Shown here one piece after another: positions 43,050 to 45,791 of a stretch of 64,000 nt of DNA (position 1 is its first letter; each line of letters begins with the position of its first letter). The position numbers and the translations under genes were made by a program. The stretch is taken from NCBI GenBank assembly GCA_036675285.1, contig JAKFFK010000245.1:8589-72588 (forward strand), written 5' to 3'. The notes under the pieces are model-generated. The model was not told the origin of the DNA. It searched no databases and worked only from the letters and a program-made list of their open reading frames with translations. The stretch comes from Paucimonas sp. GTDB lineage: Bacteria > Pseudomonadota > Gammaproteobacteria > Burkholderiales > Burkholderiaceae_D.

Positions 43050-45791
43050 ATGCAAGACAAATACAGCCCCGCCGACGTCGAAAAATCGGCACAAAACCAT
43101 TGGCAAGCAATCGACGCCTATCGCGCCGTCGAACACGCGAAAGACAAGAACGGCCAGGACAAGAAAAAATTCTATGCCTGCTCGATGCTGCCCTACCCGT
43201 CCGGCAAGCTGCACATGGGCCATGTGCGCAACTACACCATCAATGACGTGATGTACCGCTACCTGCGGATGAATGGCTATAACGTCCTGATGCCGATGGG
43301 TTGGGATGCATTCGGCATGCCAGCCGAGAATGCGGCCATGGCCAATGGCGTGCCGCCGGCCCAATGGACCTATTCGAACATCGAGCACATGAAGCAGCAG
43401 ATGCAGTCGATGGGACTGGCAATCGACTGGTCGCGCGAAATGACCGCCTGCCGCCCCGAGTATTACAAATGGAACCAGTGGATGTTCCTGAAAATGCTCG
43501 AAAAAGGCATCATCTACAAGAAAACCGGCACCGTGAACTGGGACCCGATCGACCAGACCGTGCTGGCCAACGAGCAAGTCATCGACGGTCGCGGCTGGCG
43601 TTCCGGCGCGCTGATTGAGAAACGCGAAATCCCGATGTATTACGCGAAGATCACTTCGTATGCGGAAGAGCTGCTCGACTTTGTCGACAACAAGCTGCCG
43701 GGCTGGCCGGAACGCGTGCGCATCATGCAGGCCAACTGGATCGGCAAATCCACCGGCGTCAGATTCGCCTTTCCTTATGATTTGACCGATCCGGTCAACC
43801 GCACTCACCTTCCCCTTCAAGGGGAAGGTCGGGATGGGGATGGGTTGCCGCCGCAAGGCAAGCTGTGGGTATTTACCACCCGCGCCGACACCATCATGGG
43901 CGTGACCTTTTGCGCAGTGGCGCCGGAACATGCGCTGGCGACACATGCTGCGCATTCGAATCCGGCGCTGGCCGCCTTCATTGCCGAATGCAAGCTGGGC
44001 AGCGTGATCGAAGCCGACATGGCGACGATGGAAAAGAAAGGCATGCCGACCGGCCTGTTCGTGACCCACCCGCTGACCGGCAAACAAGTCGAAGTCTGGG
44101 TCGGCAATTACGTGCTGATCACTTATGGCGACGGCGCCGTGATGGGCGTACCGGCACATGACGAGCGCGACTTTGCATTTGCGAAAAAATACAATCTGCC
44201 GATCCAGCCGGTCATCGACGTCAATGCGCAAGCCTATTCGCTGGACGCCTGGCAGGAATGGTACGCCGACAAGGAACAGGGCCGCTGCATTCATTCCGGC
44301 AAATATGACGGCTTGAATTATCCTGCCGCAATCGATGCGATTGCCGCCGACTTGGCCGCGCTCGGCCTGGGCGAAAAGAAGATCACTTATCGCCTGCGCG
44401 ACTGGGGCATTTCGCGCCAGCGCTACTGGGGCACGCCGATCCCGATCATCCACTGCGCCGCCTGCGGCGACGTGCCGGTGCCGGAACAGGATTTGCCGGT
44501 GGTGCTGCCGGAAGATTGCGTGCCGGACGGCAGCGGCAATCCATTGAACAAGCATGAAAAATTCCTGCATGTCGATTGCCCGAAGTGCGGGCAAGCTGCG
44601 CGGCGCGAAACCGACACCATGGATACTTTCGTCGATTCATCCTGGTATTACATGCGCTATACCTCGCCGGCCGGCACACCCGGCCGTGTCGACAAGATGG
44701 TCGACGAGCGCAACGACTACTGGATGCCAATGGACCAGTATATCGGCGGCATCGAGCATGCGGTGTTGCACCTGCTGTATGCGCGCTTCTGGACCAAGGT
44801 GATGCGCGATTTCGGCCTGGTCAAATTCGACGAACCGTTCGTCAACCTGCTCACCCAGGGCATGGTGCTCAACGAAACTTATTACCGCGAAGATGCGGCA
44901 GGCAAAAAAACCTGGTTCAATCCGGCAGACGTCGAATTGACGCTCGACGACAAGGGCCGTCCGCAGGGCGCCACACTCAAAACCGATGGCGTCAAGGTCG
45001 AAATCGGCGGCACTGAAAAAATGTCGAAGTCGAAAAACAACGGCATCGACCCGCAGGCGCAGATTAGCCAATTCGGCGCCGACACCGCGCGCCTGTTTAC
45101 CATGTTCGCATCGCCGCCGGAACAGACGCTGGAATGGTCGGGCGCCGGCGTCGAAGGCGCCAACCGTTTCCTGAAGCGGGTGTGGAGCTATGCATACGCG
45201 CAAGTGCCGCGTCTTTCCGTCGTGCTGAAAACCCATCCCCATCCCAACCTTCCCCTTGAAGGGGAAGGTGAGAAATGGGCGCACGCGCCTGACTCGGTGA
45301 AAGCCTTGCGGCGCGAAATCCACAAGATCCTGCAACAGGCCGACCATGACTTCAAGCGCATCCAGTACAACACGGTGGTGTCAGCCTGCATGAAAATGCT
45401 GAATACGCTGGAAGGCGCCAAGCTTGACGATGCTGCTGCATCGAACGCTGTCATCGCTGAAGGCTTGTCGATTTTCCTGCGGTTGCTGAATCCGGTCGCG
45501 CCGCACATCACCCATGTGCTGTGGCAGGAAACCGGCCTTGCAAAAACCCATGGCGATATTCTGGATGCAGCCTGGCCGCAAGTCGACCCGGCGGCGCTGG
45601 AACAGTCGGAGCTGGAACTGATGGTACAGGTCAACGGCAAGCTGCGCGGCAGCATCAAGGTCGCCAAGGATGCCGACAAGGCAAGCATCGAAGCCGCCGC
45701 ACTGGCCAATGAAAATGTGCGCAAGTATGTCGAAGGCACGCCGAAAAAGATCATCGTGGTGCCCGGCAAGCTGGTCAATATTGTCGCTTAA
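43050..45791 (+). CDS. leuS: Leucine--tRNA ligase carrying two palindromic-repeat-derived segments
   Basis: HMGH (HIGH) and KMSKS motifs; CP1 editing domain; GKLVNIVA C-terminus. Confidence 0.98.
43804..43846 (+). repeat. 43-bp palindromic repeat, copy 1, translated within leuS
   Basis: CTCACCTTCCCCTTCAAGGGGAAGGTCGGGATGGGGATGGGTT. Confidence 0.9.
45230..45272 (-). repeat. 43-bp palindromic repeat, copy 2 (inverted), translated within leuS
   Basis: Reverse complement is 42/43 identical to copy 1. Confidence 0.9.

Follow-up and report, generated by a model that had tools for sequence, protein, structure and literature searches.

Triplex-motif repeat units read in frame in leuS of a Paucimonas genome, and a candidate DUF559 nuclease cassette for their spread

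The leucyl-tRNA ligase gene (leuS) of a Paucimonas sp. genome (GenBank assembly GCA_036675285.1) raises the question of how a short palindromic repeat comes to be translated, twice and in opposite orientations, within a single essential enzyme. The gene lies in a 64,000-nt window of contig JAKFFK010000245.1 (positions 8,589 to 72,588 of the forward strand), and all positions given without a contig label are coordinates of this window. The genome analysed here is referred to as G000, related genomes carry other G-numbers and contigs carry C-numbers. The two 43-nt sequences are solo units of a dispersed repeat family with the build of the BoxC/PIT/TMECO repeats, a family that we infer, as part of an explanation that we hold to be probable overall, to have spread through cassettes carrying a DUF559 nuclease gene and through gene conversion.

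Two repeat units within the leuS reading frame

The gene, the two units and the parts of the site-1 unit are located as follows.

43050 to 45791, + strand: leuS (leucyl-tRNA ligase), an intact open reading frame (ORF) of 913 amino acids (aa) with no internal stop
43804 to 43846, + strand: site-1 solo triplex-motif unit, coding strand the G-rich strand, predicted aa 252-266
43808 to 43817: pyrimidine arm of the site-1 unit
43818: loop
43819 to 43828: purine arm
43829 to 43831: loop (TCG)
43832 to 43841: third strand (GGATGGGGAT), the mirror of the purine arm, followed by the tail GGGTT
45230 to 45272, - strand: site-2 solo triplex-motif unit, coding strand the C-rich strand, predicted aa 727-741

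The leuS product matches solved LeuS structures along its full length (6q89, E=0), its KMSKS motif (aa 657-661) comes before the site-2 insert, and orthologs of the gene were present in 41/41 relatives searched. The initial annotation of this DNA had described an inverted pair, identical at 42 of 43 positions and read through in the leuS frame. A repeat search and the uninterrupted 913-aa ORF confirm this, with arms at 43804-43846 and 45230-45272 that are 43 nt long, 42/43 (98%) complementary, 1383 nt apart and both inside the single plus-strand ORF 43050-45791. That either strand would give nearly the same peptide, free of stops, was equally well founded: the palindromic core encodes LPLQGEG in one orientation and LPLEGEG in the other, and the unit has no stop codon in 5/6 frames. 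The 21-nt hairpin core occurs in 3 copies in the window and in 0 of 100 shuffles. An Rfam scan of positions 42500-50500 gave no match, even at E up to 1.

The reading of these segments as insertions, as opposed to ancestral sequence, holds when the protein is aligned with 30 LeuS sequences from the genus, family and order. The G000 protein contains 14 additional codons (+42 nt) at site 1 and 13 additional codons (+39 nt) at site 2, both being net in-frame additions relative to orthologs across the order. Both inserts are absent from the closest orthologs, those of G003 (92% amino acid identity) and G004 (89%).

The surface loops that had been expected at these positions are consistent with an AlphaFold2 model of LeuS built on the ortholog alignment (mean predicted local distance difference test score, pLDDT, 76.8), in which both sites are low-confidence coil between conserved secondary-structure elements. 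The site-1 insert, located at the entry to the CP1/editing domain, has pLDDT <50 at residues 255-267 and is flanked by strands 233-242 and 271-276. The site-2 insert lies within the anticodon-binding domain, where residues 731-739 have pLDDT <50 and are flanked by helices 719-728 and 740-744. Alignment with the N. gonorrhoeae LeuS structure places a variable loop at both insert positions. On the model, the inserts are probably disordered surface loops rich in Pro, Gly and Glu. Units would be tolerated in leuS because such loops are permissive and the unit is largely stop-free, and because copies persist in an essential gene only if their length is a multiple of three.

The leuS unit reads CCTTCCCCTT - C - AAGGGGAAGG - TCG - GGATGGGGAT - GGGTT. 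A pyrimidine arm and a purine arm form its 10-bp hairpin; after a loop of 3 nt, a G-rich tail repeats the purine arm in mirror order, each A being faced by A or T. We scored this anatomy on 79 units from G000 and its relatives. The hairpins contain a mean of 9.6/10 Watson-Crick pairs (10/10 in both leuS units), and a mean of 9.7/10 third-strand positions are triplex-compatible (G*G, A*A and T*A triplets). Two main subtypes are separated by a coordinated three-way change at one position, T-A-A vs C-G-G. The second loops are TTG, CCG, TCG or TTA, which include both loops of Holder et al. 2015 (TTA and CCG; PMC4666352). Judging from its base sequence, the unit could fold back as a purine-motif intrastrand triplex. 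The repeat had first been labelled REP-like, and the palindromic part of that label stands, but the generic repetitive extragenic palindromic (REP) assignment does not, the hairpin-plus-third-strand build being that of a G/C-rich intrastrand triplex motif.

Elsewhere in the window there is one further copy, lacking the G-rich tail.

49423 to 49443, no strand assigned: hairpin-only copy CCTTCCCCTTGAAAGGGAAGG, intergenic, between ORFs 48969-49391 and 49486-50694

Mosaic patches around the inserts

The distribution of the two inserts among other genomes differs. The site-1 insert is carried by G000, G001 and G043, with an extended form in the Noviherbaspirillum metagenome-assembled genome (MAG) L141, and the site-2 insert by G000, the Glaciimonas genomes G022 and G096, and G075. 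Among the genomes compared G000 is the only one to contain both, and five to eight independent assemblies contain one or the other, in frame and at the same site. Sliding-window identity shows G000 leuS to be ~90% identical to its sister G003 throughout, except in two patches of ~100 nt, which resemble distant lineages (G001/G043 at site 1, Glaciimonas/G075 at site 2) and were delimited by sliding identity and by identity of the flanks alone.

43770 to 43866, + strand: mosaic patch 1, unit with foreign flanks
45195 to 45305, + strand: mosaic patch 2, unit with foreign flanks

In windows 43725-43860 identity to G003 drops to 38-68%, with G001 up to 82-92%, and in windows 45165-45300 it drops to 35-59%, with G096/G022 at 72-87%. 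The same is seen when the unit is excluded: the site-1 flanks have identities of 0.87 to G001, 0.89 to G043 and 0.45 to G003 (P=5e-15 vs backbone), and the site-2 flanks 0.78 to G096 and 0.44 to G003. The foreign flank extends ~25-35 nt on each side of each unit. When the patches are masked, the LeuS backbone tree joins G000 and G003 as sisters (98% support), with G001 and G043 in a distant clade (100% support) and the site-2 carriers scattered.

Because the flanks are mosaic, the inserts in G000 were acquired by short-patch recombination and not by simple insertion. The proposal of two independent insertions is thus upheld as far as separate events are concerned, since other genomes contain site 1 only or site 2 only, but has to be revised in that the inserts arrived in patches with foreign flanks. 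By these alignments each insert evidently came to G000 leuS, or passed from it to other genomes, within a short stretch of DNA that included its flanks. This pattern is the product expected of short-patch recombination or of homing-type co-conversion.

Chimeric assembly of co-occurring strains, or faulty binning, might also place an insert or a patch in a foreign backbone. The G000 genome (4.13 Mb, 56% GC), which its neighbours place in the Oxalobacteraceae, consists of 301 contigs with 3% contamination, and its DUF559 locus, described below, is represented by two contig ends, C112 and C196, that are nearly identical. However, a single unbroken ORF on an 86-kb contig contains both inserts in frame, the same inserts, flanks included, recur in independent assemblies of other genera, and strain collapse against a sister of a different species would not give a ~100-nt patch with the same backbone to its left and right. 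An artefact of this kind is so improbable that we give it next to no weight.

Two other observations concern this part of the gene and its tree. A palindrome, TTGACCGATCCGGTCAA, lies at 43782-43798, just 5' of the site-1 unit and inside patch 1. G001 and G043 retain it (one mismatch), and in L141 it reads CTGACCAATCAGGTCAG (one compensatory and one broken pair). It was considered as a part of the element and rejected, being absent from other unit copies and equivocal in its covariation. In the LeuS tree G000, G003 and G004 group with other genera (~85% identity), and the rest of the GTDB genus (G001, G002 and G005-G007) is in a distant clade (~76%), which points either to replacement of leuS in one subgroup or to a heterogeneous genus.

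The repeat family and its DUF559 cassette

A genome search revealed the dispersed family that the initial annotation had suspected. There are ~22 full units in G000, including six inverted doublets of ~95-100 nt and one cassette; the rest of the family comprises both copies in leuS, a small number of solo units and several copies that consist of the hairpin alone. Further units are in frame in housekeeping proteins, one in MetRS (THPHPAPLPEVEGE), in the linker preceding the C-terminal tRNA-binding domain, and others in DnaE and an HrpA-like helicase. An indolepyruvate-oxidoreductase-like (IOR-like) protein contains an entire doublet in frame (36 aa). This doublet is recognisable in G000 and G001, and decayed remnants are found in genus members without the family. 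No clean element boundaries could be obtained from the IOR-like doublet, the host linker being unconstrained and the units partly decayed. In the same linker, G004 has an unrelated perfect palindrome, CCGCTTGCC-GTCAA-GGCAAGCGG, at the position of the G000/G001 doublet, and G008 and G005 have sequences resembling decayed left units, which suggests an old insertion followed by hairpin-preserving drift.

The guess that a DUF559-type nuclease gene would accompany the repeat proved correct, as repeat units bracket the DUF559 gene of G000.

C196:518-829: DUF559 gene, between thiS and thiG
C196:446-491: left unit
C196:843-885: inverted right unit

The last residues of this protein (…THPLPNPPLEGAG…) are encoded by the right unit, and the protein is a homolog of a solved 'endonuclease-like protein' (PDB 3hrl, E=5e-29). 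A PF04480 profile search of G000 gave matches only here and at C112:21-329, the latter a near-duplicate contig end with one stop that probably represents a second haplotype. C196:1-900 and C112:1-520 are ~90-95% identical copies of thiS - REP-like - unit - DUF559, with a TAA within one DUF559, and are probably two strain haplotypes in a metagenome-assembled genome and not a true duplication. The thiS-thiG spacer upstream of the cassette (C196:276-445) also holds two tandem copies of a different, ~80-nt REP-like repeat (GGGTTTCGCGAAGCATGCTTCGCGCC…GCTTGCAAGCGCGCAGGTGG), which is common to G003 and G008 at the same locus; in G001 only a bare CCCTCCCCTTGAAGGGGAGGG hairpin is found there. This spacer is too diverged among relatives for a clean empty site or target duplication to be aligned, and was scored for presence or absence only.

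To what extent units and nuclease occur together can be seen from 401 genomes of the family. The unit is present in 68 and a classic DUF559 in 54, with both in 41 genomes, the unit only in 27, DUF559 only in 13 and neither in 320. By coordinates, units abut DUF559 on both sides in G163, G206, G207, G240, G365, G366 and G398, and a classic DUF559 is found in 7/9 carriers of a leuS insert vs 54/401 overall. In G087 (C25:54500-59500), a genome of another genus, a complete DUF559 cassette is in frame in MetRS, giving a frame of 902 aa with Pro/Gly-rich linkers encoded by the units. The MetRS linker before the C-terminal tRNA-binding domain is thus occupied in G087 by the whole cassette and in G000 by a solo unit. 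This is the only real in-frame cassette among the apparent DUF559 fusions; those in G043, G053, G232 and a Sulfuritalea MAG were rejected as Arg-rich off-frame artefacts of high-GC DNA.

A comparable arrangement can be seen in E. coli K-12, where we recovered exactly 23 copies of TMECO (also known as BoxC or PIT), several as inverted doublets. One of these lies 168 nt 3' of ycjD (NC_000913.3, 1351205-1351760), an adjacency with a chance of ~0.004 and one not mentioned by Holder et al. 2015 (PMC4666352). YcjD is annotated as DUF559 and is 50% identical to the G000 DUF559 protein. The PF04480 profile search gave no E. coli match despite the RefSeq annotation of YcjD as DUF559, and the homology is confirmed by BLASTP. 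The 3' end and stop region of ycjD form a degenerate hairpin of the same type, CCCTCTCCC…GAGGGGG. The stretch separating ycjD from the TMECO copy contains a fragment duplicated from the 3' end of ycjD.

If the units were ordinary REP or REPIN elements, they would be moved by a RAYT (Y1 transposase) and the DUF559 link would be incidental. The genome does have one Y1_Tnp gene, and inverted doublets resemble REPINs. Yet this sole Y1_Tnp gene (C96:19181-19510) is flanked by its own unrelated 23-nt inverted repeat, AAACAGGGTCAGAGTGGATTAAA, with no unit nearby; the units lack a GTAG or CGTC head and have a third-strand tail foreign to REPs; and it is DUF559, not RAYT, that is bracketed by units in G000 and at least seven other genomes. 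RAYT was rejected as the mobiliser, its gene being unlinked to the units, and we regard this explanation as very unlikely.

The inverted orientation of the leuS pair is the same as that in the cassette and the doublets (hairpin-tail, then tail-hairpin), so it could be asked whether the two copies are the ends of a composite element with the core of leuS as its cargo, allowing programmed inversion or mobility of the core. By accident alone, one pair in four would have such an orientation, other genomes have a single insert, the two patches come from different donors, and inversion would destroy an essential gene. From the arrangement of the pair it is reasonable to expect that recombination between the two copies would disrupt leuS. 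A composite element is extremely improbable, and the inverted orientation is most likely a coincidence.

The units themselves are more conserved than the gene around them. The leuS unit is 43/43 identical to that of G075 against a backbone identity of 0.80 (P=6e-5), and 41/43 identical to that of G001, again above backbone (P=0.0016), an excess that includes third codon positions. Hairpins have also been exchanged at fixed sites. At site 1 of G043 the flanks are kept and the hairpin is different, 3 nt longer and still palindromic (CCCTCTCCCGC-AAG-GCGGGAGAGGG), and this hairpin is the one at the ends of the DUF559 cassette of G043 itself. Two Sulfuritalea MAGs have an independent insertion in the same LeuS loop, in another reading frame (LPSPASGRG…), and their orthologous copies differ in hairpin subtype and share flanks. 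These comparisons suggest repeated replacement of resident copies by other members in genomes with an active family.

Conservation above backbone, third codon positions included, might also be expected if the host had selected the insert as an interaction loop or as a regulatory nucleic-acid structure, for example an mRNA hairpin acting on leuS translation. The predicted leuS mRNA hairpins at the inserts are stable (-29 and -24 kcal/mol), and the same LeuS loop was hit independently in Sulfuritalea. Against a host function, the closest relatives and most of the family do without both inserts, copies of the unit are found in unrelated genes as well as in intergenic DNA, the copy in the IOR-like linker has decayed in genomes without the family, and both inserts are low-confidence coil in the model. 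We therefore consider selection by the host to be unlikely, though less remote than the explanations by RAYT or by a composite element.

The explanation that we prefer is that the leuS sequences are solo units of a mobile family. Its autonomous form would be the cassette, made up of a unit, the gene for a Vsr-like DUF559 nuclease and an inverted unit, with doublets and solo units as non-autonomous derivatives. Spread and homogenisation would occur by gene conversion, triggered by the nuclease or driven by recombination, in a homing-like manner in which flanks are co-converted. DUF559 would be the mover of the units, a role that we infer from their association.

Several points weigh against this explanation. 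The association between unit and DUF559 in the 401 genomes (odds ratio 37, Fisher P 1e-26) is calculated without correction for phylogeny, and the 27 genomes with units but no classic DUF559, together with the 13 that have DUF559 but not this unit subtype, mean that the nuclease could be a passenger preferring such sites. There is no known nuclease activity, cut site or target-site duplication, and the empty site of the cassette is not cleanly alignable. A cellular role of the DNA or RNA structure, in place of gene conversion, could account for the high conservation of the unit, the subtype covariation may trace to one or a few events, and the assembly of 301 contigs is probably a MAG.

More tentatively, and with a probability that we put clearly below even, the BoxC/PIT/TMECO repeats as a whole may be the ends and miniatures of a selfish element of wide distribution. 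Its sole gene would encode a DUF559 (YcjD-like, Vsr-fold) nuclease, which would act on the folded or duplex unit and trigger gene conversion. Conversion would copy units and some flank into permissive sites, including loops of essential genes, resident copies would be overwritten by the currently active subtype, and insert-bearing patches would cross genera. If this is true, the leuS inserts are homing footprints, and there is a candidate origin and mode of spreading for a repeat family of hundreds of proteobacterial genomes.

Comparison with known repeat and homing systems

The closest resemblance is to the BoxC/PIT/TMECO repeats, for which Holder et al. 2015, citing Hoyne et al. and earlier BoxC work, gave the pattern CCCTCNCCC N3-6 GGGNGAGGG N3 GGGNGAGGG, in which the second loop is TTA or CCG, tallied 3610 occurrences across 262 genomes of proteobacteria and demonstrated triplex folding by circular dichroism and nuclear magnetic resonance (PMC4666352). 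The G000 units share with them a C-rich arm, a short loop, a G-rich arm, a 3-nt loop and a mirrored second G-rich arm, as well as tens of dispersed copies per genome, occurrence as singles and inverted 'palindromic' doublets, and a patchy distribution among close relatives. The G000 arms (CCTTCCCCTT / AAGGGGAAGG / GGATGGGGAT) fall outside the strict pattern CCCTCNCCC...GGGNGAGGG, and so represent a sister subtype of the same kind; the strict pattern is matched by the hairpin of the G043 leuS copy and by the whole of the Sulfuritalea L195 copy. Two further differences lie in location. For E. coli K-12, TMECO was reported to be 'always intergenic' and in no case close to a mobility gene (PMC4666352), whereas units in G000 are in frame in LeuS (two), MetRS, DnaE, the HrpA-like helicase and the IOR-like protein, and bracket a DUF559 nuclease gene. 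Repeats that the prior detailed study found to be strictly intergenic, with no mobility link, are here read through in essential enzymes.

The family resembles the REP/REPIN-RAYT systems in that its units are short and palindromic, occur as inverted doublets and flank an enzyme gene present in a single copy, and in being patchily distributed. It differs in lacking the GTAG/CGTC heads of REPs (PMC3733652) and in the enzyme that is flanked, a PD-(D/E)XK/Vsr-like DUF559 and not a Y1 transposase. Compared with miniature transposable elements with inverted repeats (MITEs), G000 doublets have inverted arms, there is no linked transposase, and the insertion sites are diverged loops and spacers at which a duplication is not definable.

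The behaviour of the leuS inserts is most like that of the Rickettsia palindromic elements (RPEs) and in-frame MITEs, where a short palindromic repeat is in frame in housekeeping genes and adds a surface segment at permissive sites (PMC10969869; PMC1779305). As with the RPEs, a conserved gene contains the repeat in frame and its orthologs lack it. RPEs are ~100-150 bp and have no known associated enzyme (PMC10969869; PMC1779305), whereas the G000 unit is ~43 bp with a third-strand tail and a link to a nuclease gene, is apparently unrelated in sequence, occurs in an unrelated host, and belongs to inserts that cross genera as recombination patches. With length and build so different, the comparison is an analogy of behaviour only. 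On the explanation preferred here, the family would be the second system, independent of the RPEs, to generate new protein loops from selfish DNA.

Homing endonuclease genes and inteins provide the remaining parallel, with a small nuclease gene in or beside conserved genes, co-transfer of flanks and a patchy distribution discordant with the tree. The cassette encodes DUF559, and flank co-transfer and polyphyly are seen for the leuS patches; cleavage is putative only. The family differs in having no splicing signals, and the solo units in leuS encode no nuclease. Taken together, these comparisons support the description of the locus as an RPE-like case in which a triplex repeat of the BoxC/TMECO type is inserted in frame. 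The evidence also points to a nuclease as partner and to horizontal spread in patches, and the mode of movement is proposed from the association of units with DUF559 and from the homing-like pattern of the patches.

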